Assembly: GCA_965205975.1 (NCBI GenBank)
Contig: OZ242195.1
Location: forward strand, 2,464,001-2,528,000
Direction of reading: 5' to 3'
Length of the DNA stretch: 64,000 nt
Source: Candidatus Latescibacterota bacterium
GTDB taxonomy: Bacteria > Latescibacterota > UBA2968
Below, one piece after another: positions 18,828 to 47,176 of the stretch (position 1 is its first letter; each line of letters opens with the position of its first letter). The notes beneath the pieces were generated by a model that saw only the letters and a list, made by a program, of their open reading frames with translations, made no database searches and was not told the DNA's origin. A program made the translations under genes and the position numbers.

Positions 18828-19550
18828 CTACGCATTACCATTTGTTCCATACATATAATCCAGATACAATTTTTCCAAATCCTCATGCTCCAATTCAGCA
18901 CGGGTGCGCTCCATGAGCAACTGCCCTTCCTTCATAATACCTACCCGGTCAGCGAGAGAACGCGCCCTGAAAATATCGTGTGTGGACATAAAAATGGCTT
19001 TGCCTTCACCTCTCAACTCTTCGAGCAAATCCATAAACTCAGCACCGGCTTGTGGATCTAAACCAGCGGTCGGCTCATCCAGAATAACTGCCGGTGCATC
19101 TCGAATGATGACAATGGCAATACCCACCTTTTGTCGCATCCCTTTAGAAAACGCCTTGACCCGCTGTTCAAAGGCTTGCTCCTGTAATCCCACGCGCTCC
19201 AAAATACGATAATATCCATCGCGGTCAGTTTCTTTGCCAGCCAAACTCGCAAAAAAATCCAGATTCTGTCGTGCAGTAAAGTTGCCATAAAGCATGACAT
19301 TTTCAGACAGATATGCGACATACTTCTTCGCCTCAAGCGGGTCTCGCGTCACATCAATATCATTAATCTTTGCCGTACCCTCAGTTGGCTCAATAAAGTT
19401 CAACATCAAATTGATAGCCGTTGATTTGCCTGCCCCATTTGCACCCAGCAAACAGAATATCTCTCCCGAGGGCACTTTCAGATTCAAATTGTCCAGTGCC
19501 AGAACACCATCTTCATACCGCTTCGAAAGTTCGATTGCTTCAATCATCAC
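18828..19550 (-). CDS. ABC transporter ATP-binding protein
   Basis: GANGAGKS, FSKGMRQK, ILDEPT, STH. Confidence 0.97.
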   Translation of the reverse strand: MMIEAIELSKRYEDGVLALDNLNLKVPSGEIFCLLGANGAGKSTAINLMLNFIEPTEGTAKINDIDVTRDPLEAKKYVAYLSENVMLYGNFTARQNLDFFASLAGKETDRDGYYRILERVGLQEQAFEQRVKAFSKGMRQKVGIAIVIIRDAPAVILDEPTAGLDPQAGAEFMDLLEELRGEGKAIFMSTHDIFRARSLADRVGIMKEGQLLMERTRAELEHEDLEKLYLDYMYGTNGNA

Positions 19551-19564: not shown

Positions 19565-21172
19565 TTATCGCCGCGTCAGCTTAACACCGTACCACACCAC
19601 GCCAACAACCAATCCGATCACACCGAGAATCAGCATACTACTCAACAAGAGATTCGTGCGTGCGGTAACGTGAATGCGTACCGTCTTATCCTGCGCCTCA
19701 ACAGATCTGTTATCTGCCATTGCCTGTGTCTGAATTTGAACCTCATAATCTCCCACGCCGACATCGTCGGGCGGCATAAATGTCAGTTGAACAGCGCGCT
19801 CTTTTGAAGGCAGCAGTTCGGAAATCACATCTGGCTCAACCGTTGATCGCCAATTGGGCGGCATATTGGCGCGAATCGCCACATTGTCCAAACGCCTCGT
19901 CCCATCGTTATACACGGTCACTTCCATAAAAACATCTTCGTCAATGCTGATCTCATGATAGAGATTTACAGCACGGACCTCGATGCGCCCCACGCCTCTC
20001 GGCACCAGTTCCAACTTGACTTTACTAACATCAAGCGTATCCAGTTCAGCCGCCGAAAACATGCGTTCTTGAATGGGTTGTAACCTTCGCCAAACTTCCT
20101 GGGGCAACACAAGGGCGTAAAACTCGATGCGTTTGTCAATCGCCACATCCACATCTGAGCGTTCGGGCAAATACACTTGTAAAGACAGATCGTGACTCGT
20201 CTCATTTTGCCGAAAATTGATCTGGCTCAAACGCGCACCTGACCGCGTAAATTGCGCGTTGATTTGCTTCGGCAGGTTCACAACCGCCAATTGAAAAGCA
20301 GCTCTCCCACTCGAAAATCGCTCAACCCGCACCGCATAAGTTGCGCTTTCTCCCAGGTCTGCCTCTTGTGAAAACTGCATCACTTCCAGAATTGGAATCG
20401 CTTTCTCTGATTCGGCTTCTACTTTCACTGGCATTTGTTTGGTCACATCCAAATACTCCATTTGGATTGTAATCTGATCGGCCTCTTCGTCCAGAAGTTG
20501 AAAGGTGAGCGATTTTTCTTCGTATAATTTAAGCGACGGCACAATCTGATCATAGGGTTTGCCAATAATGGTTCCCCCCTGATAAATGGACACAATGATA
20601 TTCTGAATCTCCAAAAGCGATGTCAGGCGTGCCTTTGACATATCCTGGTCGAGGGCGTCTAAGCCTGCGATTTCTACACCGATTTCGGCCAACTCTGACG
20701 TTCCGGATAAATAGGTCTCTGCCTCCGACACATTAGACGAGTTCTTCAAGGTCACATCAACCATCCGCCGTCCATCGGGCAAAATATATTTTTTTGCTTC
20801 CATCACTGAAATATGCGTGGCATCGCGTAAAAAATTCAGCTTTGTCTCGCGCAATGTCAACACGGCTTGCTTGTAAAGAACTGAAGCCTCCTCAAAGGCC
20901 TTTTGCGCGTCATTGAGTTCTTTCAACGTGTAAATTTTTTCTTTAAACAATTCATCTGCAATCTCCAATTCCCTTTTCTTATTTTTCAGGTCTTCTCTGC
21001 GCCGATCCAAATCCACTTCGGCTTTGCGAAGGCGCAATTCATTCAACAATTGCACCTTTGTTTTGCCTGTATTCGTCGGTGCGCTGACATCTTCTGTACC
21101 TTCAAGTTCTCCTACCCACACCATCACAAAGAACGCACAACCAACGCCCCATATCGCACCTATCCTATTCAA
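19565..21172 (-). CDS. Secreted/membrane protein: N-terminal coiled-coil hairpin, Ig-like domains including a NEW3/NPCBM-associated-like domain, C-terminal TM anchor
   Basis: Signal-like N-terminus, helical segment at about residues 45-110, VYNDGTRRLDNV...PPNW...PPDDVGVGDY, terminal hydrophobic helix followed by KLTRR. Confidence 0.7.
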   Translation of the reverse strand: MNRIGAIWGVGCAFFVMVWVGELEGTEDVSAPTNTGKTKVQLLNELRLRKAEVDLDRRREDLKNKKRELEIADELFKEKIYTLKELNDAQKAFEEASVLYKQAVLTLRETKLNFLRDATHISVMEAKKYILPDGRRMVDVTLKNSSNVSEAETYLSGTSELAEIGVEIAGLDALDQDMSKARLTSLLEIQNIIVSIYQGGTIIGKPYDQIVPSLKLYEEKSLTFQLLDEEADQITIQMEYLDVTKQMPVKVEAESEKAIPILEVMQFSQEADLGESATYAVRVERFSSGRAAFQLAVVNLPKQINAQFTRSGARLSQINFRQNETSHDLSLQVYLPERSDVDVAIDKRIEFYALVLPQEVWRRLQPIQERMFSAAELDTLDVSKVKLELVPRGVGRIEVRAVNLYHEISIDEDVFMEVTVYNDGTRRLDNVAIRANMPPNWRSTVEPDVISELLPSKERAVQLTFMPPDDVGVGDYEVQIQTQAMADNRSVEAQDKTVRIHVTARTNLLLSSMLILGVIGLVVGVVWYGVKLTRR

Positions 21173-22523
21173 AATACCCCATCACCTCCCTCAAATTTTC
21201 CAGCGCATTGATATAGCCATCCTGACTCTGAAACAGCCGCTCTTGTCCCGCAAAAAAGAGATCCCGAAACGTTTCAACCTGGTTGTCTGTCACCTGTCCC
21301 AGATCGCGCAAACGCTCCTGAATTTCAAGCCGCCTGCTGTCCATTTGGAGGCGTCGCGTATTGATCTCCCGTTGCAAAATCCGATCTTGTAGTGTCTGGT
21401 AGTGTTGCCGCACATCGCGCTCAACCTGCTCGCGTCGGTCTCGAAACGATGCCTGCACCTGATACAATCGCGCACGCGCAGCCCCAGTTTGTCCATAGCG
21501 AGAAAATCCCGAGAGAATCGGCATTGAAAATTGAAAAAGTGCGAACTTATTTGTATCTCGCATTATAAAACGCGAATCCAAAGGCAGGTTACCTGTACGC
21601 AAGAGCAATACATCTGAAGAGGCATCCAGACGCCAGGTGCGCTGGCTGCGCGTCAGATCAAATCCCAGGACCTTATCACCACTTTCCATGCCAACTTTTA
21701 TTCCAAGATCCGGCAAGTAGTCCAACCGCGTTTCATGAAATGCGCGTGAGACCTCAGCAACTTCCTCGCCAAGTCTTTCAATCTCTACATCGCGGCTCAG
21801 AGCTATTGCAACGGCATCTTCCAAACTCATTTCAAAATCCTCAACCTCCCCAACCAACATCACGTCTTGCACCATATCGCGCCCCATCAACCGCAAGAGA
21901 TCAAAGGTCAACCGTGCTTTTTGCCCCAACAAGACACTGATCTGCGCTTCTTGTTCCAAAGAATCTAACTGCGCCGTTAGTAAATCAAATTCTTTTGCCA
22001 CACCGTGTTCGTATTTCACCCGAATACGCCGCAATTTTTCCCGCACATTGTCGAGTACCTCGCGTCGGTTGGCAATTTGCTGCCTTTTAACAATTGTCAA
22101 ATAGAAATTGCGCCTCACCTGTGACAACACGCGCCGCGTTTGTCGTTCGTAGTCAAGCCGCGCTAATCGCATTCGCGACCGATACGCCACTTCTTCAGGT
22201 GCATCAGCACCAAACTCCAACACGCGCTGTCGCGCATGCAAAATGGCTTCATCGCGAAATAGATCACTATCTATGTGTCGCAGATCTGGCACATTGTACC
22301 GGGTCTTCAAATCCACCTGTGGAAAAAACCGGGATCGCACCACCCACTTATCGTAATCTATCTCCTCAACGCGCTGTCTGGCAGACAGTAGAGTTTCATT
22401 GTGCGCTCGCGCCAGTGCCAAACAGGTCTCAATCTCCAGCACCCCACCTTGTTGTGTATGACTAACAGGTGCCCAGGACATCAGGATACATAAAAACACC
22501 AAGCGATTCAAAAAACGCACCAT
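21165..22523 (-). CDS. TolC-family outer membrane efflux protein
   Basis: Signal peptide; two repeats (LALARAHN..FFPQVDL and AIALSRD..YLPDLGI); FSMPILSG; GGAGG RBS. Confidence 0.85.
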   Translation of the reverse strand: MVRFLNRLVFLCILMSWAPVSHTQQGGVLEIETCLALARAHNETLLSARQRVEEIDYDKWVVRSRFFPQVDLKTRYNVPDLRHIDSDLFRDEAILHARQRVLEFGADAPEEVAYRSRMRLARLDYERQTRRVLSQVRRNFYLTIVKRQQIANRREVLDNVREKLRRIRVKYEHGVAKEFDLLTAQLDSLEQEAQISVLLGQKARLTFDLLRLMGRDMVQDVMLVGEVEDFEMSLEDAVAIALSRDVEIERLGEEVAEVSRAFHETRLDYLPDLGIKVGMESGDKVLGFDLTRSQRTWRLDASSDVLLLRTGNLPLDSRFIMRDTNKFALFQFSMPILSGFSRYGQTGAARARLYQVQASFRDRREQVERDVRQHYQTLQDRILQREINTRRLQMDSRRLEIQERLRDLGQVTDNQVETFRDLFFAGQERLFQSQDGYINALENLREVMGYFE

Positions 22524-22819
22524 AACCTTTCCTCCGAAGGCAGCCGTTGAAGCCTGTGTCAATAACCGCACTAATCTCTCTGCTACTGTCACTGGTTCCC
22601 TCATACTCAGAGAGATAATGCACCTCAGAGCATGTAGGCCAATTATCATGCCTCATTTGCCCGTAGAGAACTCCAAAGCAGTGGGCATACCATCAATATG
22701 CCCTGTCCGCAAAAGATACGCAATCGCATCGCGATTTTCAAACTCTAAAGAAATTCTTACTGACTCTTTGATCTGCTTACGCTGGGAACATGAAACATTA
22801 CAAATTGATCTTGAAAATC

Positions 22820-22987: not shown

Positions 22988-24502
22988 TTAACGCACATCG
23001 TATTTTAGAAATGACACATACGTTCCAATAAAAAGCAGTAGGGATAAGAGGATGAGCAATAGGATGTCAATGAGTGTCGCTTGCACAACAGAAACTATCG
23101 ACATCTTTTGATACTGAAACACAGGAATCTCATTCAGATTGACCTTTTCGAGCTTTTGTATTTCTGAAAAAGTATTCAGCAATTCGCCGTCCTCCCGGGA
23201 TTCTACGATTATTCCCTCTGTTATGATTTCTTCCGCTACGTCGCCATCAGATGTTACGCGTACTATTTCCCTATTTTCAATTTTTGTTTTTATAAATGCA
23301 ATATATCTTTCTCTATATCCCCTTAATAACTTGATAAAATGCCTAAAGCTATCCATTCCTGTATCAGCGAGGTCCGCCGTTGCATATGTCATTGCAGAGG
23401 CAGGAGATAGGCGGGAAAAGGTGATTGCAAGATTAGCCAAATTTTGTTGTCGTTGTTGGTATTCTCGCTCCATCCGAGCTTGTGCATTTTCAAGCTCAGC
23501 ATCTCGCTGTTCATGAATTTCTTTTTTCTTTTTTTTATATTCATTCCATCGCCTTTCCGCTTGTTCCATACTTTTCCGACTGAATATCTGATCCTGATCG
23601 TACAAAAGCTTCTCACTAATCTTATAATATTTTTTAAAAATATCATTCATTAATTGCGTTTTTTTGATACGGTATTGCTGGCTTGAAGGAACGTGAATAA
23701 ACTGTGTAGCAAGGATACTGCTACTTTTGGGAATGATAAGTACGACCATCACCCAAATAAAAAGTCCGACCAAAAAGGAGATACTCGAACTCTTCGTACG
23801 AGCCGAAATAAATGCACCAATCAAAAAAAAGACGGTTAGATACAGCAGAAATATGCAAAAAATCAAAATCAGACGTAGATAGTCATCGCTTTCAAACTGA
23901 ATATTAGGCAATAGAAGAAGCACAGCCATGCTCAGGAGCATGGGAATCAATAAGGGAATAAATAAACAGAGCAGTCCGCCGATCAATTTGCCCAAGATAA
24001 GCGTGTCACGCGGCACGGGAAATGAGGCGATCAAACGCAGAGTGCCACCTTCTTTTTCTCCTGAAAGCGTGTTATACGAGAAGACTACGGCTAAGAGGCT
24101 AAGGATATATTTTATGATGAAAGTCAGACTAAAATCACCGAACAGTGCCCAAACAGGATTGCCCTCAATTTTGCTGCCATGAAGTTCTGGTGTGCTATAC
24201 GAATTAATATTCAGATTTCTGCCGATGTAATTCGCTATGCCGACATTGAAAATCGCCAGCACTTCTGGCGGTTTACTGATGCGGATACCTTCGCTTTCAA
24301 TGTCTTCATATGTTTCTTGGGATTTCAGCGAATTTCTATTAAGTGCCTGAATGCCGTTGTAGTCATTCACAAGATCGCTATAATTGCACACACTGAGATA
24401 AAAACTCAAAAAAATCAGCATCGCACTCAGGATGCAGGCAATGACAAATGTCGCGTCGGAAAACCGCGCCAACAATTCTTTTTCTATAATTATTTTGAGC
24501 AT
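22988..24502 (-). CDS. ABC-2 type transporter permease (paralog A)
   Basis: SGEKEGGTLRLIASFPVPR..LILGK, SRLSPA, terminal FLKYDVR. Confidence 0.9.
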   Translation of the reverse strand: MLKIIIEKELLARFSDATFVIACILSAMLIFLSFYLSVCNYSDLVNDYNGIQALNRNSLKSQETYEDIESEGIRISKPPEVLAIFNVGIANYIGRNLNINSYSTPELHGSKIEGNPVWALFGDFSLTFIIKYILSLLAVVFSYNTLSGEKEGGTLRLIASFPVPRDTLILGKLIGGLLCLFIPLLIPMLLSMAVLLLLPNIQFESDDYLRLILIFCIFLLYLTVFFLIGAFISARTKSSSISFLVGLFIWVMVVLIIPKSSSILATQFIHVPSSQQYRIKKTQLMNDIFKKYYKISEKLLYDQDQIFSRKSMEQAERRWNEYKKKKKEIHEQRDAELENAQARMEREYQQRQQNLANLAITFSRLSPASAMTYATADLADTGMDSFRHFIKLLRGYRERYIAFIKTKIENREIVRVTSDGDVAEEIITEGIIVESREDGELLNTFSEIQKLEKVNLNEIPVFQYQKMSIVSVVQATLIDILLLILLSLLLFIGTYVSFLKYDVR

Positions 24503-24549
24503 GGAGATACATACCTAAAAAATGAAAAGAGTAACCAATTAACAGAACC

Positions 24550-24580
24550 ACCATCGTGGTCGAAATAAGACCACGATGGT
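24550..24580. other. 12-bp perfect hairpin between the small-protein gene and permease A
   Basis: ACCATCGTGGTC-gaaataa-GACCACGATGGT. Confidence 0.75.
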
Positions 24581-24814
24581 AGTAATACCAATCAGATATA
24601 GAAATCTTGCACTTTGTAATCAGGTATGGTCTGTCTATGCCTATTTTGCACGCCGAAATGCAGTCAGACAGTCAGGTTCTCGAAAATGAGCTACAATGTC
24701 ATGCAAGATTAATTCATACGATTGGTATAACATAGAATGTGAAGCCCTGGACAAAAGTCTGTTAGCACTATTTACTATTTATGGTTGGACCCCACTCTTG
24801 GATATCAAACCCGA

Positions 24815-25168
24815 CTAACTACCTGCGTCTGCGTACTCCACATCTCCCGAATCATGAGCATGATGAAATACACACTTTGCAAAATTTTTAGCCTTGTACT
24901 TTCCGCTAGGTTTGCACTTAAAACCTTTAAGATGGTGTCTCACTTCATCCGCATCATACATGTAGAAACACTCGTAACTAGCATCGTCGCTCACCGTCCT
25001 GAGAGCCTCGTCTAGCGTGTCATACTCACATTCTGTTTCTTGATAAGCATCTTCAGTCACATCATGGGCCACTGCGCTGTCAGGAATGACCCAAGGCACC
25101 ATCATACCAGCCGAACACAAAATAGTGCTGAATTTCGGCACATTGTTGGGCAACCAGTTTGCAATCAT
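24815..25168 (-). CDS. Small secreted Cys-rich protein/precursor 1 (117 aa)
   Basis: AGGAGG RBS; 34-aa leader ending SAVA shared with the 27193-27543 gene; four Cys in the predicted mature part. Confidence 0.85.
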   Translation of the reverse strand: MIANWLPNNVPKFSTILCSAGMMVPWVIPDSAVAHDVTEDAYQETECEYDTLDEALRTVSDDASYECFYMYDADEVRHHLKGFKCKPSGKYKAKNFAKCVFHHAHDSGDVEYADAGS

Positions 25169-25230
25169 TGTGTAACCTCCTGCAATGGATTAAAAAACGA
25201 AACAACCTGATAATTTACACACTTCTTCAG

Positions 25231-25249
25231 TTTGGGCATAATGCCCAAA
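25231..25249. promoter_or_regulatory. Palindrome TTTGGGCAT-A-ATGCCCAAA upstream of precursor 1
   Basis: Perfect inverted repeat; counterpart at 27608-27621. Confidence 0.6.
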
Positions 25250-25340
25250 ACAATTACGGTTCCTACTTTCCTATTGACAATTCAACAACAGGTAAAACGC
25301 GCCCGTTCTGTATATCGACAAGAAAATCCGACCGATTCTC

Positions 25341-25433
25341 CTACCGACTACATCCAGGGCTTAATGCTTCCGGCGAATGAGTTAAACCTCCTTTCTGTTT
25401 ATCAGTGATAAACTCTCAAATCCCTCATATTCC
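25341..25433 (-). pseudogene. Remnant of the 3' end of the DsbA-like gene
   Basis: Translates FITDKQKGGLTHSPEALSPGCSR*, compared with FVTDKQKGGLTHSSEAVSPGCGR* in 27717-29957; frameshifted further upstream. Confidence 0.85.
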
Positions 25434-25520
25434 GCTTGTCATCCGAGACTTGGACTTTGTCTGAGAGTTTGCTACCCCTCCAAGACATTTATTTATCCGT
25501 AGATGCCGCAGAAGTTCCAA

Positions 25521-26936
25521 TCAACGTACATCGTACTTCAGAAATGATACGTAAGTACCAATAAAAAAGAGCAGTGAAAGCAGAATAAGCAAGAGCATAT
25601 CAATGAGTGTCTCTTGAATAACATAAGCAAGTGGCATTTTTTCATATATAAACATAGGCATTTCATTCACATTGGGCTTTTCGCTTGTCTCGACATTTCT
25701 AAAATCATGTAGTTTTTCTTTTATAAACGCGATATATCTTTCCTTGTATGCGTATGCTGATCTAATGAAATGGTCAAAGCTACCCAAGCCCGTGTCAGCA
25801 AAATTCATAGTTGCATGGGTCATTGCAGCGGCAGGAGATATGCGGGAAAGGGTAATTGCAAGGGTGGCCAAATTTCGCTGTTGTTGTTGGTACTCTCGTT
25901 CCATCTGAGCTTGTTTCTTTTCCAGCTCAATATGCTTTTGTTCACTAATTCCATCCATTTTTTTTAGATATTCGTCCCGTAGCTTTTCCCTGAGTTCGCG
26001 ACTCGTTTCTATATTTTGTTGAGCGGTATAATCTTCTGTCAGTTGCGTCCGCTTCTGGTCATATTTATCAGAAAGATCATCCCATAATCGGACTTTTTCA
26101 ATACGATATTGCTGGCTTGAAGAAACCTGTATAAACTGTTCAGCAAGGATACTGCTACTCTTTGGAATGACTAGTACGACCAATACCCAAATAAAAAGCG
26201 CGATTAAAAAGGACACATTCACACTCTTGGTGCGTGCCGAAACGTACGTACCAATTAAAAAAAAGACGGTTAGATATAGTAAAAATATGCCCAATATAAA
26301 AATCAGCCGAAGCCAATCATTGCTTGCAAATTGAACACTCGGCAATAGAAGGAGGACCGCTAAGCTCAAGAGTGTGGGGATCAATAATGGGATGAATAAA
26401 CTGAGCAGGCCCCCGATCAACTTCCCCAAAATGAGTGTGTCTCGTGGCACGGGAAAGGATGCGACCAATCTGAGGGTGCCCCTTTCTTTTTCTCCAGAGA
26501 GCAGGTTATACGAGCAGATAATGGCTAAGAGGCTAAGTATATATTTTATGATGAAAGTTAGATTAAGATCGCCAAATAATGCCCAAACCGGATTGCTCTC
26601 AATCTTGCTACCCTGAAGTTCTGATGTAATAAACGAATTAATGTTCAGATTTCTACCAATGTAATTCGCTATGCCGACATTGAAAATCGCCAGCACTTCG
26701 GGGGGTTTGCTTATATTTATACCTTTAGTACTAATGCCCCAATACGTTTCTTGTGCTTGGAGTAAATTTCTATTAAGTATTTGAGTGCCATTGTAGTCAT
26801 CCACAAGATCGCTATAATTGCGTACACTGAGATAAAAGCTCAGAAAAATCAGCAGAGCACTCAGAATACAGATAATGACAAAAGTTGTATCAGAGAATCG
26901 CGTCAACAGTTCTTTTTCTATGATTAATTTGAGCAT
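25521..26936 (-). CDS. ABC-2 type transporter permease (paralog B)
   Basis: MLKLIIEKELL start parallels paralog A; SGEKERGTLRL; FLKYDVR. Confidence 0.9.
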   Translation of the reverse strand: MLKLIIEKELLTRFSDTTFVIICILSALLIFLSFYLSVRNYSDLVDDYNGTQILNRNLLQAQETYWGISTKGINISKPPEVLAIFNVGIANYIGRNLNINSFITSELQGSKIESNPVWALFGDLNLTFIIKYILSLLAIICSYNLLSGEKERGTLRLVASFPVPRDTLILGKLIGGLLSLFIPLLIPTLLSLAVLLLLPSVQFASNDWLRLIFILGIFLLYLTVFFLIGTYVSARTKSVNVSFLIALFIWVLVVLVIPKSSSILAEQFIQVSSSQQYRIEKVRLWDDLSDKYDQKRTQLTEDYTAQQNIETSRELREKLRDEYLKKMDGISEQKHIELEKKQAQMEREYQQQQRNLATLAITLSRISPAAAMTHATMNFADTGLGSFDHFIRSAYAYKERYIAFIKEKLHDFRNVETSEKPNVNEMPMFIYEKMPLAYVIQETLIDMLLLILLSLLFFIGTYVSFLKYDVR

Positions 26937-27192
26937 AGGAGACATACCTTGCAAGGTAAGCAGATGAGAATGGACAGAGCCCCCATAGCAGTCTAAACTC
27001 TCACTGCGATGGGGGCAACATATATGTAAAGGCAACGGGCAAAACTTGTCAGTGCTATGGATGGCGTGAATTCAAAATCTTGGATCTCAAAATCAATGAA
27101 CTGTTGACGCCTATTTGCGTGTGAAAACCGCGGACGAATACTCAGCATTACAACAGAGACCCATAACACTTTTGTCACCGACTAACAGCTTC

Positions 27193-27543
27193 TCAGGAAC
27201 CTCCACCTCCATTTCCGTCGTCTCCGTCGTCTCCACAATTTGATACACACCTTGCTGTACCATCGGCTTTAAAACATATTCCCCATATGGTGTATCCGAA
27301 ACTCCAATTCCCTGTTGTTTCGAGATAATCCTTGTTTTTTGAGGAACATTTGTTTCTTCCCTCAGTGTCCAACGCACTCATAGCGGCCCCGGGAGTAGCA
27401 TAATCGCAGGGCACAGAGACAGAATAATAATGTATCGTGCATGCCATAGCACTACTGGGAAGTAGCCAAGGCACCATCATACCAGCCGAACACACAATCC
27501 TACCGATTTTCGACATATTATTGGACAACCAATTTGCAATCAT
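27193..27543 (-). CDS. Small secreted Cys-rich protein/precursor 2 (116 aa)
   Basis: GAGGAGG RBS; leader ending SAMA; six Cys in the predicted mature part; Gly/Asp tail. Confidence 0.85.
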   Translation of the reverse strand: MIANWLSNNMSKIGRIVCSAGMMVPWLLPSSAMACTIHYYSVSVPCDYATPGAAMSALDTEGRNKCSSKNKDYLETTGNWSFGYTIWGICFKADGTARCVSNCGDDGDDGNGGGGS

Positions 27544-27607
27544 TGTGTACCCTCCTCAAAGATAATTAAAACGAAACTACTGGACAATCTACAAATTTCT
27601 TCGGTTT

Positions 27608-27716: not shown

Positions 27717-29957
27717 CTACCGACCACATCCGGGGCTTACTGCTTCGGATGAGTGAGTCAAACCTCCTTTTTGTTTATCCGTTACAAACCACTCAAATTC
27801 CTCATATTCCCAAACATCCGTCAGCTTGCCGTTAATATAAAATGTAGGCGTTCCACGGACGTTTAGAATGGATGCCTGTTTTATATCTTTTTTTATTTTT
27901 GAAGCATATTTACCCGTGTCCAAACAGCGGTTGAATTGTATAGAATCAAGTCCCAATTCAGTAGCATAGTGCTTCAGATGGCCTGACTCTAATACATCTT
28001 GTTTGGCGTATAAAATATCGTGATATTCCCAGAATTTTCCCTGTTCACGAGCGCATTCAGATGCTTCATGAGCTTTTGGGGCATTCTTGTGAAACGGCAA
28101 GGGAAAATGTCTGAATACGAGACGTACTGTTTCAGAATAATTTGCCAATAATCTATTCAATACTCGTCCAGCTTGAGCAGAATAAGGGCACTGAAAATCA
28201 CTGAAGACCACAATTGTGAAAGGCGCGTTTGGTGCGCCGATAGATGGCAAGCCTTCATTGCTCAGGTTGTAAATGGGTATCTCCGGAGGATCGAAGTAGA
28301 TCTCTATTTCCGCTTCATCAACCAATTCGTGAATGAACTGTTCCCTTTCATTCTCAAATTTTTTGTTCCGAGCAATGCGTTCTGCGACTGGCCAAAGGCG
28401 TTCTCTAAATGTTTTTCCTTCTATTGGATCAATTTTCATCATACGCAGGATTTCATTTTCCCGGATTTCATCGGGCAACAAAGCCAATCTTGGGTTCTTA
28501 AGCATCGTGCTATGAAGTATATTGAATTGTTCTTCGACTTGCACATCTGATGGCGTAGCATCAATGTTTCGCAAGAATAAGTCAATACTGGTGCCTGCGT
28601 TCTTAGCTGCCTCTTGTAGAACAACAGGTTTGAAAATCTCTCGAATTTGTTCAACCTTCAGATCATAAATTTGCTTTGCTTCAGAGTAGAAATAATCGTC
28701 GTCAAAATCATCTTCCGTTATCATACCACCCTTAAATTTCGCGTAGATTCGTTTACCGCTATTATCTCTAACTATCTGTCTTGATTGCTGGTCACCTTGC
28801 AGTTCTAAAGTTACGCGCCTTGAAAGTTCGGAAAAATGATCCCTGCTTCTCAATTTTATCGGTCTGGAGTTTACAAAAAGAGACGGTGTGCTATGAACGC
28901 CCAGTCTATGGCCTTCTCTTATGTCTTGATGAACCCTATCTGCAAATTTGCCTGAATCGAGGTCATGTCTAAATTTCTCCAGATCGAGGTCTAATTTCTG
29001 TGCATACGCGATCAAGTCTTCTTTTTCGAGTTTATCAAAATTTTCAAATAATAAATTGCGATATTCCCAGAACTTTCCCTGCGCTCGGGCGCATTCAGCA
29101 GCTTCATGTGCTTTTGGGGCCTGACGATGAACGGGAAGGGGGAAGTGTCGAAAAACAACCTTGAGCTTATTATCAAATACGGCCAATAGCTGATTTATAA
29201 TCGGCGAAAGTTGACTACAATAAGCGCATTCAAAATCGCTAAATTCTACAATCGTAACAGGTGCGTCCGGCACCCCTTGCATTGGAAATCCTTCAATAGA
29301 AATATCATATACTGGAGGATTGGGTTCTTCAAGATAGGTTTCTACACGAAATTGATTGTGTAATTTCATCATATATTCTTGCTCTGCTTTCATTTGGTTT
29401 TGATTTGCCAGTTGGTCTCGAATGACGTTCTTCAACTGCTCCCCAAAATCTTGTTGTGGGTCTAAATCAATACGCATAACATCGAATATCTTTCTCCAGC
29501 GAGAGTCTCTATCAAGATTCCTAAATTCAGGTTGCCGATTGATAGTATCAAATATGTTCCTCATCTCTTCGTCTATCTCAGAATCTTTGACAGTGGGAAC
29601 ATCAACTTCAGATTCGAAAATCTTGCTCGCAGGAATACCCAATTCTTTGGCTTTGTGGGCTAATAATTTTTCTCCAACAATTGCATTTAGCCGATCCAAT
29701 TTCAATTCATACAGTTTTTGCTGAGCAGGATAAATTTTGGTATGGTCAAGATCATGTTCATAAATTAACCTACCATTGTATTTCGCAATCACTGTATCAG
29801 ATTTTACTTGATGCCCATAAACGAAACCGCATGGCAAGTGGAACAGAAAAGACGCCAAAATTGAGGGAAAAAAGAGCCTATAACTCCAAACAGGACATTG
29901 GTATATTCTCTTGAGCATAATAGAGATTGCGTATTTTGAGGCCATACATAAACTCAT
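27717..29957 (-). CDS. Tandem (SurA-N-like helical + DsbA thioredoxin) x2 protein
   Basis: APVTIVEFSDFECAYC...STP and APFTIVVFSDFQCPYS...GTP; both repeats contain FRHFPL and QGKFWEY. Confidence 0.9.
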   Translation of the reverse strand: MSLCMASKYAISIMLKRIYQCPVWSYRLFFPSILASFLFHLPCGFVYGHQVKSDTVIAKYNGRLIYEHDLDHTKIYPAQQKLYELKLDRLNAIVGEKLLAHKAKELGIPASKIFESEVDVPTVKDSEIDEEMRNIFDTINRQPEFRNLDRDSRWRKIFDVMRIDLDPQQDFGEQLKNVIRDQLANQNQMKAEQEYMMKLHNQFRVETYLEEPNPPVYDISIEGFPMQGVPDAPVTIVEFSDFECAYCSQLSPIINQLLAVFDNKLKVVFRHFPLPVHRQAPKAHEAAECARAQGKFWEYRNLLFENFDKLEKEDLIAYAQKLDLDLEKFRHDLDSGKFADRVHQDIREGHRLGVHSTPSLFVNSRPIKLRSRDHFSELSRRVTLELQGDQQSRQIVRDNSGKRIYAKFKGGMITEDDFDDDYFYSEAKQIYDLKVEQIREIFKPVVLQEAAKNAGTSIDLFLRNIDATPSDVQVEEQFNILHSTMLKNPRLALLPDEIRENEILRMMKIDPIEGKTFRERLWPVAERIARNKKFENEREQFIHELVDEAEIEIYFDPPEIPIYNLSNEGLPSIGAPNAPFTIVVFSDFQCPYSAQAGRVLNRLLANYSETVRLVFRHFPLPFHKNAPKAHEASECAREQGKFWEYHDILYAKQDVLESGHLKHYATELGLDSIQFNRCLDTGKYASKIKKDIKQASILNVRGTPTFYINGKLTDVWEYEEFEWFVTDKQKGGLTHSSEAVSPGCGR

Positions 29958-30013: not shown

Positions 30014-32125
30014 TTATATTTTAAATCGGGACCCTACTCTGATCTTTTTTTTGCCGAATGACAAAACATCTGCGCTATTTGAATAGATGTGTTCAATTCG
30101 TTCATTCTCATTGATCATTAAAACCGTCATTTCTATCGAATCCTGGAAAGGCGGTTTCTGAATTTGGAATGCTACAGCTTGACCACTCTGGAATTCAAGC
30201 AAACCTGAAGAACAATTCTTAGCATCCATTGAAAAACCTAATTCCCTAACGACTAATAGTTTATCTTCATTTTCCTGGGGCATTAAAACGTAGGAAATCA
30301 CAACGCAGCCTTTTGCATTTAAGCTGAAAATCGCTGTCGGAATGGGACGAATTTTAGCACCGCCATCGTAAAACTCCCAACCTTGTATTTGAGGCTCTTT
30401 TTGGCCTTTTACGATACGAACATCCACCGTGTGTTTTGTAATGGGATAAATACCAAAATGACGCCCAGTATTATTTTGTGTATAGATCCCCCCATGGCGA
30501 TCCACCTGTGTTGCATATTCTGCGTTGAAATGAAAGAGTGATTCATAAGTATGGGTAAGACTATCTGTTGGTTCAAGAATATCCGTCATGATCCAAAAAC
30601 GACTTTTTAAAAAGAAAATCGAGCGCGTATGTAAAACGTTTATTCTCTCTTTACCAAATCCTTCATTATAGCTTGCATATACAAAATCGAAATCGTCATT
30701 CGTTATCCAACCAGCGCGAACCTTTTTGAGATTATACGCCTGGGATTTTGGTAATTTTTGCCCTTGCCCATCTACAATTACCACGTTATGAGCTTGCGAA
30801 GAACGTGCGTAAGCCTGCCAACTTGATGTCAGATCGCGCGTATAGTATCCAGGGTCTATAATGTGTAGCTGTCCATGTGAATACACGATAATACTCAGTT
30901 TATCTTCATGCCCATTTTGACCAATTGGGCCAGCATCAAACAAAAGATACGAATCTTGCCCTTCTACAGAAGACCGCATGACATATTGCCCAGCATAGGG
31001 AAACGCTTTTGATTGTCTATCCGGTATGATCCCTTTTTTTCCTTTTGTTGCAACCCATTGGAAATCTTGACGTTTCGGAAAGAGTAAAGCACCTTGTTGA
31101 ATTAAGGGAAAAATATCCGCATATACGCCATTATTTAGCGCAGGCATTATTCCATCCGGCAGCGATACATACAACCTGTAACTAAAGATCTGTTGTAAAC
31201 CTGCCATGAAGTCGATTGGGAATTTTTCCCCATTCCGAATCCCAAGATCAATAGAAGACAAAAGAGGTTTAAACGAGCTATCCGAGCTGGATATATCTGG
31301 TAATGCCCCATCCGGATAGACCAGATTACTAAAAAGCCTCATCATCCTATCCAGAGCCAAAAGGCGCAATTTTTCAGAGTCCTTCAATTCTGGAAATAAC
31401 ACACCGGTATAATAAATACCACAGCTTTCCTTTAATCGCCATTTGCTATCTTCCCGCGAAAATTTAATGAGATGATGGACTTGCTCCATCATACTACACA
31501 ACATTGTGCAAATAGCAGCAGAATCAAATAAAGGTGATTTTAGGAAGGAGTAAAAAGCCCAGGGCCATGAATATGTCAGTCTATGAGCACATTCAAGCGT
31601 GCGCCAATGATTTGTAATGCCACTACCCATTTCAGCATTTTCATTCCAGGCTTTGCCATTGCCTTCTAAGGGACTGAGTATCTTTTCACACCAATCCTTC
31701 ATCTGTCCAACAAAAGATTTAACATATCGCTCGTTACCGGTTTTTGAGAACGCTTTTCCAAGCACTACCCAGGATTCATGTCTTGCCAACTGCCACGTTG
31801 TTTCTTTTAGATGATTTCCCGTAAATTCCCAATCTATACTCTCCTTAAAGTTGTATGTAGTGTCCAAAATCGTAAATTTGTTTTTGCAAATTCTATCGGC
31901 TTCTCTAAGAACAAAGTCTTCACTGGCCCCCTCTGGTTCAATTTCCATATCGGAAAACCACCTGGGGACTGTACGGGTTCTTAAATGCAAAGCGAGAGCA
32001 TCTTGAGCAGATGTCCAATCTGACACTATTATCTTCTGTTTCACTTCCTTTAGATCTGGCAGATCTAAATCCAGCAAATCAAACAGGTCTTGAAGGCTTA
32101 TTCTTGGACCAATCATAAGTATCAA
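30014..32125 (-). CDS. Heparinase II/III-family protein
   Basis: WRTLEC..R, GHEDKLS, IDPGYY, AHNVVIVDG, HTRSIFF. Confidence 0.8.
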   Translation of the reverse strand: MILMIGPRISLQDLFDLLDLDLPDLKEVKQKIIVSDWTSAQDALALHLRTRTVPRWFSDMEIEPEGASEDFVLREADRICKNKFTILDTTYNFKESIDWEFTGNHLKETTWQLARHESWVVLGKAFSKTGNERYVKSFVGQMKDWCEKILSPLEGNGKAWNENAEMGSGITNHWRTLECAHRLTYSWPWAFYSFLKSPLFDSAAICTMLCSMMEQVHHLIKFSREDSKWRLKESCGIYYTGVLFPELKDSEKLRLLALDRMMRLFSNLVYPDGALPDISSSDSSFKPLLSSIDLGIRNGEKFPIDFMAGLQQIFSYRLYVSLPDGIMPALNNGVYADIFPLIQQGALLFPKRQDFQWVATKGKKGIIPDRQSKAFPYAGQYVMRSSVEGQDSYLLFDAGPIGQNGHEDKLSIIVYSHGQLHIIDPGYYTRDLTSSWQAYARSSQAHNVVIVDGQGQKLPKSQAYNLKKVRAGWITNDDFDFVYASYNEGFGKERINVLHTRSIFFLKSRFWIMTDILEPTDSLTHTYESLFHFNAEYATQVDRHGGIYTQNNTGRHFGIYPITKHTVDVRIVKGQKEPQIQGWEFYDGGAKIRPIPTAIFSLNAKGCVVISYVLMPQENEDKLLVVRELGFSMDAKNCSSGLLEFQSGQAVAFQIQKPPFQDSIEMTVLMINENERIEHIYSNSADVLSFGKKKIRVGSRFKI

Positions 32126-33315
32126 ACCCGCGTTAATTGGTTATAGATTTCAAGCCAGGACTCTCGCTCTTTTTCTACAGTGTAATCTTTTTTTATTTTT
32201 TCCTGGGCGTTTTTACCAAAAAAATTTCGCTCCGATTCATCTTCAACAAAAATGCCTATTTTGTCTGCCAACTCATCGGAGTCATGGCTTGCTACCAAAA
32301 AGCCATCTCTTCCGTCATCAATAACATCGCGATTCCCACATACATCAGTCGCAACAATCGGCAATCCACAAAACATAGCTTCCAACAGTGCATTTGGAGA
32401 CCCTTCATGAAGCGAAGGAAAAACAAAAATATCCATCTCATGGAGCCAGGCACAGACAAGCGTATGTGGAATCCAGCCCGTGAAAGTGATATGGTTCCAT
32501 AATTTTTCCTTTTTAAGCCACTTAATCCATTCCTTTTTTTCTTTTAGATCAGAAAATTCTCCCACCAACAGCAGGTGCAGATGTGAATATCGTCTAACGA
32601 GCTTTGCAAATGCTTCAAAGAGATATTTGGTTCCCTTAACGTGACCTAAACGCCCGGCCGTTCCAATAATTATTTTCTCTTTTGTCTTTAGAGCCAGAAA
32701 ACGCTCTATAAATTTGCGACTTGATCTTTTTTCATTCACTGCAAGTCTAACAAGAGAAATATTGGCAAATAGCAAAGGATCGAGGGCATTGTGAATCACT
32801 GTTGCGTTTTCTATATTCCCTATGAGTCGCGCCTTATATAATAAATCAGAGTTTACGGATGTTACATAACACGCCTGTTCCAGAACCCATTTCAACGCAG
32901 GCAGTCGTTCCGTGCTATAGCGCATAGACTCTACATCGCTCCCTCTCAGACTCACAATCAAAGGGACGCCAACTTCGCCTGCAACAAGTGCTCCAATTTG
33001 CCCGGTGGGCAAAGCAAAAATACTGTGTATTATATCAAACCCTTCTGACTCATTTAATCGTATAATATAATTTCCGATTTCCCGTTTTTCTCGGTGATCT
33101 CTGTATGGTGTACTCATCTCAGAAATCGTGCGATGTACCGTGACACCAGCTTCCACAACAGGTTTAACCTGAGAGATATTTCCATTAGGACCAGGCGCAA
33201 TAACATGAATATTGAGGCCCAGAGCAGATAGATTCCTGGCAAGCCTGAACGTAAAACTGCCCACTCCCCCTCGGCCAAAAGGAGGAAATTCGTAAGTAAT
33301 TATACAGATGTTCAT
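32122..33315 (-). CDS. GT4-family glycosyltransferase
   Basis: YEFPP..GG, FPSLHEGSPNALLEAM. Confidence 0.92.
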   Translation of the reverse strand: MNICIITYEFPPFGRGGVGSFTFRLARNLSALGLNIHVIAPGPNGNISQVKPVVEAGVTVHRTISEMSTPYRDHREKREIGNYIIRLNESEGFDIIHSIFALPTGQIGALVAGEVGVPLIVSLRGSDVESMRYSTERLPALKWVLEQACYVTSVNSDLLYKARLIGNIENATVIHNALDPLLFANISLVRLAVNEKRSSRKFIERFLALKTKEKIIIGTAGRLGHVKGTKYLFEAFAKLVRRYSHLHLLLVGEFSDLKEKKEWIKWLKKEKLWNHITFTGWIPHTLVCAWLHEMDIFVFPSLHEGSPNALLEAMFCGLPIVATDVCGNRDVIDDGRDGFLVASHDSDELADKIGIFVEDESERNFFGKNAQEKIKKDYTVEKERESWLEIYNQLTRV

Positions 33316-33326
33316 CTAAATATTGC

Positions 33327-34502
33327 TCACTCTTTTGTTTTTATGATTTCAGAAATAAGCTGTGCTGTTCTGTAAGCACCATTAAGTTGAATATTATATG
33401 CTACTGGCTTTCTGCATAAACTCTTCTGAATCTCTTTAGCCAGAATCTCTGGTGATAGTTTTTGCTCGTCAATTTTAGTGGCGAAACGCCTGTTGGCGAA
33501 CTTCTCTGCTCGCAATTCTTGATCCCCCCCTGCCTTTGCAGGGACCAAAATAGCTTTAACTCGCTTTTCGAGAATATTCATACAGGTGTTATAGCCTGCT
33601 CGGCTAATCGACAAATCCGCTATTTCCATCCACTCCAGAAAATTCGGTGTAAATCTATGCACAATAATGTCTTTCGCTCCCGCACAACATGCACGAAGTT
33701 CGTTAAAAGATGCTGCACTCAAAAATTCACCACAAAAGACAATAAATTTGCTTTTCAAATCTTTATTGAGGTATTTCTTAGCCTCAATACAGTTTCTCAA
33801 AAAATCCATAGTACCATAAGAATCAATTCCGCTTCCAGCAGTTATAAGAATCACGCTCTCATCGGGAGACAAATCGATATGAGAGGGAAGGAAGCCTGTA
33901 TCATGTTGATTCCAAGATTTTTTTTGAGAGACATAACCTGTATAATGAATTTCAATATCGATATGATGCCATGATGTGAAAAATTCCTCAACTTCACAGA
34001 ATTTCGGATCGGCATGGACAAATAGATGAGCAAAATAAGTATTCAAGATTGCACAACATCTCATCATATAAGATTTTGTATATTCTGTTTTTTCTTTTGG
34101 AATATCTCTTAAAGAACATATAACCTGCGTTCTCAATTGTTTTAAAAGTTTAATAGTATGCAGGGTTGGGAGCAATTCATCGCGCAAATACCATCTGCCA
34201 AAAGGGAAAAATTCTATAATGAACACATCAGGTTTAACTTCCTCAAATGTGGAATGAATAATTTGTTGACGCTGCGTGATGATATTCGAGTAAATAGGAC
34301 TGTCGGTTGATATTCCACCTTCGTCAAAATTAGGAAGGGGCCTTATTGTGACATGATCAGGATTAGAGTAATTAGAAAGTTCCCGACCCCCATTAAGATA
34401 GAAAAGGTCATATCCCTCTAACGCTTCAATGAGTTGACGAGTCCGGACATAGTGTCCAATTCCTCTAACGTGATGGCTGTAAAACAAAATTCGAGGCCGC
34501 AT
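33327..34502 (-). CDS. Predicted GT-B glycosyltransferase (GT28/GT1-like C-terminal domain)
   Basis: YSHHVRGIGH, IEFFPFGR, SISRAGYNT, DQELRA. Confidence 0.85.
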   Translation of the reverse strand: MRPRILFYSHHVRGIGHYVRTRQLIEALEGYDLFYLNGGRELSNYSNPDHVTIRPLPNFDEGGISTDSPIYSNIITQRQQIIHSTFEEVKPDVFIIEFFPFGRWYLRDELLPTLHTIKLLKQLRTQVICSLRDIPKEKTEYTKSYMMRCCAILNTYFAHLFVHADPKFCEVEEFFTSWHHIDIEIHYTGYVSQKKSWNQHDTGFLPSHIDLSPDESVILITAGSGIDSYGTMDFLRNCIEAKKYLNKDLKSKFIVFCGEFLSAASFNELRACCAGAKDIIVHRFTPNFLEWMEIADLSISRAGYNTCMNILEKRVKAILVPAKAGGDQELRAEKFANRRFATKIDEQKLSPEILAKEIQKSLCRKPVAYNIQLNGAYRTAQLISEIIKTKE

Positions 34503-34510
34503 TATTTGTC

Positions 34511-35740
34511 CTATTTTGAATCATCAACACATTCGGTAGTTTGGTAAATTTCCTGTGTTCGATAATAAATATCTAACCAGGTAGTAGATTCTCGTTCAGC
34601 AGAAAAATCTTCCTCTATCGTTTTTAGAGCAGCCGTTGCTAACTTTTGGCGCAATTGAGTATTTTGAGCTAAAAGTTCCAATCTTTGGGCCAGTGCTTCA
34701 GAAGATCCTGGCGAGACCAAAAACCCATTTTCCTTATCTTTTATGACGCCTTTAATACCATCAATGCGAGATGCAACTATCGGCAACCCGATACCCATTG
34801 CCTCCAGTAACGCATTGGGCGATCCTTCGTATAGGGATGGAAAAGCGAAAATGTCCAGCTCTTTGAGCCACGCAGAAACGTGCGCGTGAGGAACTGGGCC
34901 CGTGATTGTAACTTTCTTTTTTAATTTCAAATATTTGATCTGTTGCTTTGTAATCGCTTCATCATATTGACTTGTAAATCCGCCAACGAGAAGCAGGTGT
35001 GCTCTTGGGTAGGTTACTAACAGATCCTTAAAAGCCTCTAAAAGATGATTGAATCCTTTCTTGTGTCTTATAAGACCAGAAGTGCCGATCATTGGCGTGC
35101 TACCTTCTTTTATTTTTTTAAATTTTTGAAAAAATAGACGATAGCGCAAATTTTGTTTTTTTATAATCTCTGATAGCGCATCCGATTCGAACATTGAAAC
35201 ATCCACAGCATTGTCAATCACTTGAGAAAAAGGCAACGAAACAATTTTTTTTGCGATCTCTAAAAGCTCCGACGTGACGGATGTAACAAATGTGGCATTC
35301 TGAAGCACCCATTTTAATGTGCCCAAATAAACAGGACTAAAGCGCAATAACTCAATGTCATTTCCTCTGATACTCAATACCAGAGGGCATTTAATTGCTT
35401 CAGCCGCCCAGGAAGCTACGAAACCCGAAGGAAAAATGAAAAATCCATGCACGAGATCAAATTTCACCTCATCATTAAGACTGATCACATATTCTGTCGC
35501 TTCCTTAAGCTCGAGAGGATTAGCCTGAAGATAGTTACCCAAAGAAGGAAAAAGTCTATGCACAACAATGCCATCTTCTACGCTTGGCAAAATTTGAGCA
35601 TCGACTCGATTATTGCCAGGCGCAATGACATGGATTTGCACACCAGCGTTGACCAAATTCTTGGCAATCCTATAGGTCGCGGTTCCTACCCCACCTCGTA
35701 TCATTGGTGGGTACTGAAATGTCACGAAGCAAATTTTCAT
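34511..35740 (-). CDS. GT4-family glycosyltransferase (paralog of 32122-33315)
   Basis: QYPP..GGVG, FPSLYEGSPNALLEAM. Confidence 0.92.
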   Translation of the reverse strand: MKICFVTFQYPPMIRGGVGTATYRIAKNLVNAGVQIHVIAPGNNRVDAQILPSVEDGIVVHRLFPSLGNYLQANPLELKEATEYVISLNDEVKFDLVHGFFIFPSGFVASWAAEAIKCPLVLSIRGNDIELLRFSPVYLGTLKWVLQNATFVTSVTSELLEIAKKIVSLPFSQVIDNAVDVSMFESDALSEIIKKQNLRYRLFFQKFKKIKEGSTPMIGTSGLIRHKKGFNHLLEAFKDLLVTYPRAHLLLVGGFTSQYDEAITKQQIKYLKLKKKVTITGPVPHAHVSAWLKELDIFAFPSLYEGSPNALLEAMGIGLPIVASRIDGIKGVIKDKENGFLVSPGSSEALAQRLELLAQNTQLRQKLATAALKTIEEDFSAERESTTWLDIYYRTQEIYQTTECVDDSK

Positions 35741-35743
35741 ATC

Positions 35744-36829
35744 TCAAAAACTTTTAATTTTTCTTTTTAAAGAGCCTTTACAACAGGCTAATAGGAGCTT
35801 AAATCGTTCGCTGATGTCTATGTAATCCGTAAAACCCGTAAAATCCGAGTTTTGAAATCTGATGAATGAATTTATTCCAAGAAATGAGACTTTTTTGCAT
35901 TCATAAAAAAAACGCCAGCTCAGTACTTGTGCAAAAATGGGTTCTGGATAGAATTTCTGTTTCTCATTCGATGATTTAAGCTGGCTTAACCAGAACAGCA
36001 GTTGATCGAGAGACCCTCTATTGATTTTTGAAGAAAGACAGAGATATTGATGTGCTTCTTCAACTTGAGATGACTTTAAGAGACCACTTCTTTTTAAAAT
36101 ATTTTTTCTAACGGAATTTGAGAAGAACTTCTGCACATCGCGATATTTTTTCCCAATTTGATTAGCGTGTTCCCGGTATTTTATAAGTGGCTCATCAATA
36201 TTGTGCATTTGACATACCATCGCACATTTATCCCACAAGGCCATATCCTCAGCATGTAGAAAGTAGGGATCATATTTGAGCTCATTCTTGGTTAGTACTT
36301 GCTTTCTAATCATAACAGAAGGGTGGGCCAACGGTGTTTTGAAAAGCATAAAGCATTGTATCTCGTCATGAGAAATAGGAAACTTCCGAATATATTCTCC
36401 CGATTTCTTCATTACAATTACCCAACTCCCACAGACACCTACTTGAGGATTTTGACTCATAAATTCAAGCTGCCTCTCTAACCGCGAAGGCAAACAGATA
36501 TCATCACAATCTATTCGCGCTATGTACTCTCCTCTTGCTAATTTTAATCCTTTATTCAAGGAGCGGGTTAGACCAATATTGTCTCTATTCTTGATCACTC
36601 TGATTCTCGAATCGTCATATCCCTCAATAATCTCAAGGCTGTTATCAGAAGACCCATCATCAATAATTAAAAATTCAAAATTGGGCATTGTTTGCGTAAG
36701 AACGCTATTTATGGCCTCTCTTATATGAGTTGCACCATTATAAACAGACATTAAGACTGTGATTTTGAAATTCTTTTTTCCTTTTGAATAATTCATCTCA
36801 AGCTTATTCCTCAAACTCCATTGCGACAA
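35744..36829 (-). CDS. GT2-family glycosyltransferase
   Basis: VLMSVYNG, IIDDGSSD, ARIDCDD, AED. Confidence 0.92.
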   Translation of the reverse strand: MSQWSLRNKLEMNYSKGKKNFKITVLMSVYNGATHIREAINSVLTQTMPNFEFLIIDDGSSDNSLEIIEGYDDSRIRVIKNRDNIGLTRSLNKGLKLARGEYIARIDCDDICLPSRLERQLEFMSQNPQVGVCGSWVIVMKKSGEYIRKFPISHDEIQCFMLFKTPLAHPSVMIRKQVLTKNELKYDPYFLHAEDMALWDKCAMVCQMHNIDEPLIKYREHANQIGKKYRDVQKFFSNSVRKNILKRSGLLKSSQVEEAHQYLCLSSKINRGSLDQLLFWLSQLKSSNEKQKFYPEPIFAQVLSWRFFYECKKVSFLGINSFIRFQNSDFTGFTDYIDISERFKLLLACCKGSLKRKIKSF

Positions 36830-39741: not shown

Positions 39742-39757
39742 TCACAGCCCCTTAAAA

Positions 39758-41194: not shown

Positions 41195-41398
41195 AAATTT
41201 TCTCCCACATCAGCTTCTAACACATCAGCTTTATCGGATAAGCCCGTAAGACCCACTCGCAGAGAGCTTTAGCGTTGTGCCGCATGGCGAAGGGCTTTGA
41301 TTTTGGTCTCTGCGAGTGCTTTAGCATGGTGGCGCATCGCTAAGCGGCGATGTGGGTGGTGAATCATTGAAATTATCCGTTCACAGGCCACATAAGAC

Positions 41399-41427
41399 TT
41401 GCATAAGTTACTGTTTTTGTGTATATT
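41399..41427 (+). promoter_or_regulatory. tnpB promoter, probably giving a leaderless mRNA
   Basis: TTGCAT-N17-TATATT; ATG begins 7 nt after the -10 box with no RBS. Confidence 0.55.
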
Positions 41428-41433
41428 TATACT

Positions 41434-45261: not shown

Positions 45262-45286
45262 CACAATTATATATCAGGAGAATACA

Positions 45287-46615: not shown

Positions 46616-46627
46616 AAACTGTCAGCC

Positions 46628-46668
46628 AAACCAAAAGAGCGGACACATAGTGCCCGCTCTTTTGGTTT
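46628..46668 (+). terminator. Rho-independent terminator after amtB copy 1
   Basis: AAACCAAAAGAGCGG...CCGCTCTTTTGGTTT. Confidence 0.85.
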
Positions 46669-46708
46669 TCCAGGCGCACATCTCCACAATGTGCGCTTTT
46701 TTTTTTCT

Positions 46709-46736
46709 TTGTAATTCAAAAATCGGGTTTTATAAT
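46709..46736 (+). promoter_or_regulatory. Candidate promoter for the second glnK-amtB pair
   Basis: TTGTAA-N16-TATAAT. Confidence 0.55.
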
Positions 46737-47140: not shown

Positions 47141-47176
47141 AACCACAAAATGAAAAACTCTGGAGGGAACACAAAT

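Follow-up and report, generated by a model that had tools for sequence, protein, structure and literature searches.

The 64,000-nucleotide stretch analysed here, from the genome of an uncultured marine Candidatus Latescibacterota bacterium (contig OZ242195.1, positions 2,464,001 to 2,528,000; the window) contains two homologous genes, P0001 and P0002, each encoding a small precursor protein with a signal-like leader and a cysteine-bearing core, and each directly followed by its own ATP-binding cassette (ABC) permease gene. We tentatively read the two as different alleles occupying a polymorphic cargo slot within an operon for two-step export, the products of which would be exported effectors, and we give this reading somewhat less than an even chance. 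On the minus strand the genes run in the order heparinase II/III-like, double DsbA, P0002, permease B, P0001, permease A, TolC, NEW3-domain protein and ABC ATPase (Table 1). Both open reading frames (ORFs) had been picked out in an earlier note on this DNA and are real, including the leaders quoted there: they specify homologous proteins of 117 aa and 116 aa, are called genes in the protein collection, and are the sole copies in the 5.56 Mb single-contig genome as judged by tblastn and motif scans. The leaders are identical at 23/34 positions and the cores at about 19%, a core homology above chance, with the observed global score being reached by 6/2000 shuffles. The features listed as common to the pair (C-[ED]-Y-x-T, C-x19-C, KA-x3-A[KR]CV and a terminal GS) were all found again, as were the four and six mature Cys residues and the ribosome binding sites AGGAGGT and GAGGAGG.

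A protein family with conserved leaders and dissimilar cores

Combined searches gave a family of 18 full-length proteins and one fragment, with 12 matches in a profile search of 1.84 billion representatives and no match in Pfam; the family is real, and is undescribed in the databases and literature searched (subscription papers and supplements lay outside that search). Within the phylum the small gene was found in 3/168 genomes, all from a single Ca. Latescibacterota genus (3/21 genomes of that genus). Family counts below use 14 non-redundant sequences, after removal of the fragment and of four near-copies of P0001. Among the 14, median identity is 71% for the leader and 20% for the core, the conserved leader and variable core of precursors of peptides made on ribosomes and modified after translation (RiPPs), and the cores fall into about 11 types, with every core pair outside two small groups being at most 29% identical. 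The Pfam model of the NVEALA family of Bacteroidota, a possible lead, gave no match at E<=1 for the 14 members or for 15 peptides of the g27 type described below.

The 34-aa leader has Lys in its n-region, a 13-residue hydrophobic stretch (mean Kyte-Doolittle hydropathy ~1.9), Pro at -6 and a terminal A-x-A (A-x-[AG] across the family), and it probably behaves like a Sec signal peptide. The motif CSAGMMVPW, which the earlier note had called invariant and a possible recognition element, is not invariant: CSAGM[MLI]VPW is present in 10/14 members, and the leader Cys is replaced by Tyr in 3/14. As the leader dN (nonsynonymous divergence) of 0.17 equals that of the neighbouring permease (0.18), with a lower dS (synonymous divergence; 0.44 vs 0.81), leader similarity owes much to shared DNA history. 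The idea of a recognition element is weakened by this and by the Cys to Tyr changes, although SAG[ML][MLI]VPW is kept in 12/14 members. The leader end [WF][LIVM]1-2PxxAxA was seen in 0/156 crudely defined signal-like N-termini of the genome, yet recurs in the g27 peptides.

An even number of Cys was counted in 18/18 mature parts (range 2-8), which supports full disulfide bonding, while the fixed Cys scaffold claimed before was reduced to two invariant Cys. A second pair (of the C47/C85 type) is jointly present in 8/14 and jointly absent in 5/14 members, and P0031 has an extra pair of its own. The C-terminus carries a CxCxxCxxxC tail in 6/14 and an H-x-H motif was found in 12/14, with P0002 lacking both; the last residue is Ser or Thr in 14/14. 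Motifs read from the window pair are not general to the family (KA-x3-A[KR]C 2/14, C[ED]YxT 2/14, C-x19-C 7/14, terminal GS 8/14). Members of the P0001 type share 89% identity over the core and 84% over the leader, so the cores represent conserved types and there is no hypermutating region; between core types the proportion of synonymous differences (pS) is 0.72 and synonymous sites are saturated. Ongoing diversifying selection, as suggested in the earlier note, thus finds no footing in these comparisons. The cores can be seen as a small and apparently stable scaffold, in which a sequence change of ~80% is tolerated.

Predicted fold and disulfide bonds

The P0001 core was modelled with a predicted local distance difference test (pLDDT) score of 93-98 over residues 41-100, and is predicted to fold as a dodecin/RcsF-like beta-alpha-beta-beta domain, with RcsF (2y1b), FvfA (5evg), YbjQ-like proteins (2gtc, 1y2i), DUF1471 proteins (2m2j, 2ma8) and calcium dodecin as fold neighbours. 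RcsF is a lipoprotein with an invariant lipobox Cys, which the window family does not have: its leader Cys follows T-I-L and is Tyr in 3/14 members. Disulfide pairs were assigned from Cys parity, co-variation and the model, and the fixed disulfide of P0001 would be C67-C99, joining the helix end to the last strand. Both predicted pairs lie at matching fold ends, a geometry reasoned from secondary structure. Of the proposed new family of disulfide-stabilised effectors, the part describing secreted, disulfide-stabilised small proteins with variable cores stands, backed by even Cys numbers, a dedicated DsbA and a confident fold; effector activity is kept as part of our tentative reading.

Core and permease genes as an exchangeable cassette

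A unit of ~2.4 kb, consisting of the DsbA 3' end, the small gene and the permease, is repeated in the window with 73-88% DNA identity outside the core. Two genomes of the genus, G012 and G002, are syntenic with the window and have one small gene each, with a different core in the same slot. In comparison with these genomes, identity falls from 84-97% for flanking proteins to 69-73% for the adjacent permeases, and dS rises from 0.24-0.41 (two flanking genes) to 0.67-1.05 (permeases) and to saturation in the cores. Judged by this divergence and synteny, core and permease predate the genes on either side. Of 20 degenerate codons, 1 differs between the leaders of P0001 and G002, though their cores are dissimilar, and the P0001 leader, like the DsbA remnant (Table 1), is closest to G002. 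A contig from another study carries DsbA, a P0001-type gene, a permease-A-type gene and TolC as a single unit, with 62 differences in 2325 nt, and on a sponge-metagenome contig a P0031-type gene follows DsbA (type read by hand from a 30-letter loose end). These patterns suggest that recombination has exchanged long-standing alleles of cores and permeases, and the window tandem looks like the stacking of an incoming foreign cassette. As in polymorphic toxin systems, an exchangeable C-terminal domain is found at one locus. In G002 (L006:14238-19106) insertion sequences (IS) flank the small gene and sit inside the DsbA region, and the pre-permease hairpin is not intact.

This RNA hairpin lies just before the permease start in 3/3 intact cassettes, and 6/14 of its pairs have changed on both sides (in three related sequences only); it would fit a small gene expressed above the permease. 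The spacer between P0001 and permease A also contains a 30-nt inverted repeat (77%; window 24582-24731), and a contig from run X6 switches strand at 24550/24734, which may represent a spacer inversion in another strain.

The export machinery

The earlier note had overlooked the pairing of each small gene with an ABC permease in an export operon. In the model of the adaptor-like NEW3-domain protein a long alpha-hairpin is combined with Ig-like domains and a membrane helix at the C-terminus, and the 32-row profile of this protein matches the hairpin regions of MexJ, MexA, ZneB and a MacA chimera (E 3e-4 to 0.03), which suggests that it is a TolC adaptor. The locus thus combines TolC with a periplasmic alpha-hairpin adaptor, as in STII-type export. 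The permeases are of the ABC2_membrane_2/DUF3526 type with a stand-alone ATPase, and not MacB-fold (type VII) transporters; the best solved relative in a permease profile search was NosY (E 3.6e-14), and no paper on DUF3526 was found in the literature searched. Small gene, DsbA and adaptor occur together in the same 3/21 genomes of the genus, a co-occurrence which counts as one event because the three genomes are closely related and carry the island at one site.

Over 23-38 kb the GC content is 38-42%, compared with a genome value of 50.9%. In those island genes that were scanned against Pfam and NCBIfam, no radical SAM, YcaO, lanthionine synthetase, cyclase or C39-peptidase gene was found, and the RiPP typing suggested earlier lost its ground in this respect; the only potential modifiers in the island are the DsbA-like protein and glycosyltransferases (GTs), and the best matches of the latter are to generic cell-envelope families, none of them reaching the cut-off.

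The export module in other Latescibacterota

Adaptor relatives were found in 78/168 Latescibacterota genomes, often as two tandem paralogues. We examined 42 loci in all, picked first by score and contiguity and then, for 20 of them, from one genus. Small secreted Cys-rich peptides were present in 10/42 loci (16 genes), all in a second genus, g27 (L034, L035, L038, L041, L043, L048, L049, L051, L052 and L053), with lengths of 59-95 aa and near-identical leaders. Most of the 16 genes encode six Cys, three encode four, and one, apparently frameshifted, encodes three; 13/16 directly adjoin a permease gene, and many of the pairs form tandem units that also encode a secreted protein of 274 aa which belongs to no Pfam family. 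A profile of 15 g27 peptides gave 53 matches in 15/31 g27 genomes and none in other genera. The g27 peptides share with the window family a leader end only (14 columns, probability 47%), and the g27 permeases are not sister to A and B, so that this gene layout seems either to have originated twice or to be ancient.

The g27 units adjoin GT2, GT1/transglutaminase fusion, DUF1573 and TPR genes, and most g27 peptides are next to a secreted family of 255-311 aa (L038:10279-11103, L043:4794-5618, L051:8832-9656 and relatives). Three members of this family were scanned against Pfam without a match, and it is a candidate immunity protein, chaperone or receptor. The closest outside relative of permeases A and B (L026:7381-11592) has IS remnants between it and a nearby serpin gene, the product of which has an N-terminus like that of a lipoprotein, and in two loci from other genera (L029 and L030) CBM9-like genes directly adjoin the permeases of this module, a hint of sugar recognition.

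Proposed mechanism and alternative explanations

In the mechanism we propose, the 34-aa Sec signal peptide would be cleaved after A-x-A, after which the periplasmic double DsbA would form the one fixed disulfide (C67-C99 in P0001) and, where present, the optional pairs of the C47-C85 type and of the C-terminal CxCxxCxxxC tail. The ABC-2 permease and ATPase would then capture the folded periplasmic domain of ~9-11 kDa and pass it via the hairpin adaptor to TolC and outside, a step proposed from gene content and the precedent of STII and MacAB-TolC. Over time an old core and permease cassette would be swapped behind the shared anchor of DsbA end and leader, presumably by recombination, and the window genome would hold two stacked cassettes. 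Outside the cell the protein would most likely act as an effector peculiar to its strain where symbionts living together compete, which is the weakest step, and the permease allele would give export and possibly self-protection. Several observations weigh against this reading: net acidic cores in 14/18 proteins, no known toxin domain recognised by sequence in the variable cores, no small ORF with a ribosome binding site seen between small gene and permease, no recognised immunity gene, a permease loop which is equally variable where the peptide is absent, and a module which is mostly peptide-free, with no peptide within the fetched stretch in the other 32/42 loci. A doubtful extension would be that the Latescibacterota have an undescribed tripartite exporter (NosY-type permease, ATPase, hairpin/Ig adaptor and TolC) with permeases as exchangeable specificity cartridges, each exporting and protecting against its own mini-protein, and that two genera separately recruited unrelated Cys scaffolds to this slot, yielding a natural library of strain-specific effectors in marine and sponge symbionts.

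The absence of an immunity gene and the acidic cores would also suit a variable surface coat or a host- or phage-interaction protein, exported by the same route and swapping alleles to escape phage or host recognition, which we regard as unlikely. Such a coat would share the export mechanism with an effector and follow the export logic of dispersin and Aat (available text of PMC5985334), and glycosyltransferases and a CBM9-like gene in the island, a related locus in a sponge metagenome and a hairpin suggesting that the small protein is made in excess over the permease agree with it. However, dispersin is described in that text as positively charged and has a different fold, and it is not obvious why each allele of a coat should need its own permease. 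One small gene per permease, fold neighbours which are periplasmic proteins, and conservation of the core within its type (89%) are the observations expected if the small protein were a periplasmic subunit that helps the permease to bind substrate, to sense or to gate, comparable to RcsF or NosD, and that changes together with the permease loop so as to alter pump range, and NosY-type permeases do act with a periplasmic partner (PMC13685413, in the part available). We hold this to be rather unlikely, as 32/42 module loci have no such gene, core identity is 20% against 69-73% for the permeases, and the g27 slot is filled by peptides of unrelated sequence.

It is improbable that the locus is a RiPP-like system, in which the leader is the recognition element and island glycosyltransferases modify the core (e.g. 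at the terminal Ser/Thr) before export: GT2 and GT-B enzymes are present in both the window island and the g27 loci, the terminal Ser/Thr and SAG[ML][MLI]VPW are conserved (14/14 and 12/14), and the leader end shared with g27 is missing from 156 crudely defined signal-like N-termini of the genome, but leader dN is that of the permease, within a type the leader diverges faster than the core does, there is neither a double-glycine site nor a C39 peptidase, all Cys are paired by count, and the glycosyltransferases best match generic cell-envelope families below cut-off. The H-x-H motif (12/14), the CxCxxCxxxC tail (6/14) and the YbjQ-like and calcium dodecin fold neighbours would be explained by secreted metal-binding proteins (His-x-His, Cys-rich tail) exported for metal sequestration or detoxification; with both motifs missing from P0002, thiols that DsbA would oxidise, and ~11 mutually dissimilar core types left unexplained, this is very improbable.

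If exported effectors are indeed encoded here, the operon would represent a new route out of the periplasm for folded disulfide-bonded proteins, via a transporter fold not known for such a job, and the first candidate polymorphic effector system for this uncultured phylum. The natural core and permease pairs allow a direct swap, asking whether a transporter subunit chooses its protein cargo. The locus would probably escape biosynthetic gene cluster mining, since no family keyed on by classic RiPP rules is present.

Island genes and other window features

Table 1. Window positions of the small genes, the export operon and associated features
Feature	Position	Strand	Remarks
P0002	27193..27543	minus	116-aa precursor; 34-aa signal-like leader (27442-27543), 82-aa core, 6 Cys; ribosome binding site 27551-27557
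P0001	24815..25168	minus	117-aa precursor; leader 25067-25168, 83-aa core, 4 Cys, predicted beta-alpha-beta-beta fold; ribosome binding site 25175-25181
Permease B, ABC-2/DUF3526	25521..26936	minus	directly after P0002; ATG start at 26936
Permease A, ABC-2/DUF3526	22988..24502	minus	directly after P0001; accompanies P0001-type core in another study's contig
Double thioredoxin/DsbA-like protein	27717..29957	minus	CxxC and CxxS sites read from translation
TolC/OEP-family outer membrane channel	21165..22649	minus	
Adaptor-like protein	19565..21172	minus	alpha-hairpin (H39-77/H83-118), Ig-like domains including NEW3, C-terminal membrane helix
ABC ATPase	18828..19550	minus	
DsbA 3'-end remnant	25341..25433	minus	upstream of P0001; 89/99 nt to G002 DsbA vs 80/99 to the window's own
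RNA hairpin	24547..24583	minus	between P0001 and permease A; strong, z -6.8
Homologous RNA hairpin	26979..27016	minus	between P0002 and permease B; z -2.7; compensatory changes
Low-GC island upstream genes	30014..37595	minus	heparinase II/III-like, two GT4, GT28-like, GT2, CBM9-like; any tie to the small proteins hypothetical
Two further ABC-2 permeases	38158..41194	minus	27-29% identical to A/B; not found here in G012 or G002

The extra permease pair adjoins a transposase-like ORF (41419-42537; together window 38158-42537), which we take to be of the IS200/605 type. Further along, window 45182-48499 has what are presumably two ammonium-transporter genes around a PII-like gene, and window 49615-57735 contains a 909-aa ORF, an ORF and a gene pair which from their translations we assume to be methyltransferase-like, HNH-like and AAA-ATPase/PIN-like, respectively, possibly forming a defence island.

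Comparison with known systems

Glycocin clusters of the sublancin type combine a disulfide-rich product with a thiol-disulfide oxidoreductase, a GT2 enzyme, a double-glycine leader and a C39-peptidase ABC transporter. The window cluster likewise unites GT2, thiol-disulfide oxidoreductase and ABC transporter genes with a probably disulfide-rich product, but differs in its folded core of 80-105 aa without unpaired Cys and in having neither a double-glycine leader nor a peptidase ABC transporter. Polymorphic toxin cassettes such as CDI (contact-dependent inhibition), Rhs and MafB have a conserved N-terminal part and an exchangeable C-terminal part, with the resident cassette displaced downstream. 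All three features have a counterpart in the window, where the tandem suggests such a displacement, whereas a large delivery protein, a small immunity gene and a known toxin domain are absent and the partner gene encodes a transporter subunit.

The closest solved structure to the permeases is NosY, and the NosDFY complex is described, in the available part of its account, as spending ATP on the handling of periplasmic proteins, with no transported substrate shown (PMC13685413); unlike that system, the window has TolC and an adaptor instead of NosD, NosL and NosZ. Latescibacterota are prominent in sponge microbiomes and are noted there for their biosynthetic potential, according to excerpts of PMC9426513. 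Dispersin, a 10 kDa Sec-exported protein, leaves the periplasm through TolC with its own pump of this kind, and is described as positively charged and of another fold (PMC5985334, available text). As with dispersin/Aat and CexE/Cex, the window locus would pair a folded protein of ~10 kDa with a dedicated tripartite pump for periplasmic export; those two systems use a MacB-type pump and a positive cargo of other fold, and no swapping of cargo and permease cassettes is described for them. STII of E. coli is exported by Sec and then oxidised through DsbA, after which MacAB-TolC expels it from the periplasm (PMC5985334, available text), and the window locus resembles it in having a small protein with a probable Sec signal, probable Dsb disulfides, and an outer membrane step served by ABC transporter, adaptor and TolC. 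No sequence relation to STII was found in PDB or Pfam searches, and the locus is not a member of the MacAB-TolC type because its transporter is not MacB. By analogy, we infer that it works like the STII and dispersin systems without being a member of either, with an ABC-2/NosY-like permease in place of MacB, an adaptor built of a hairpin, Ig-like domains and a C-terminal anchor, a DsbA and pump which are dedicated and co-encoded, and a polymorphic cargo paired with permease alleles.

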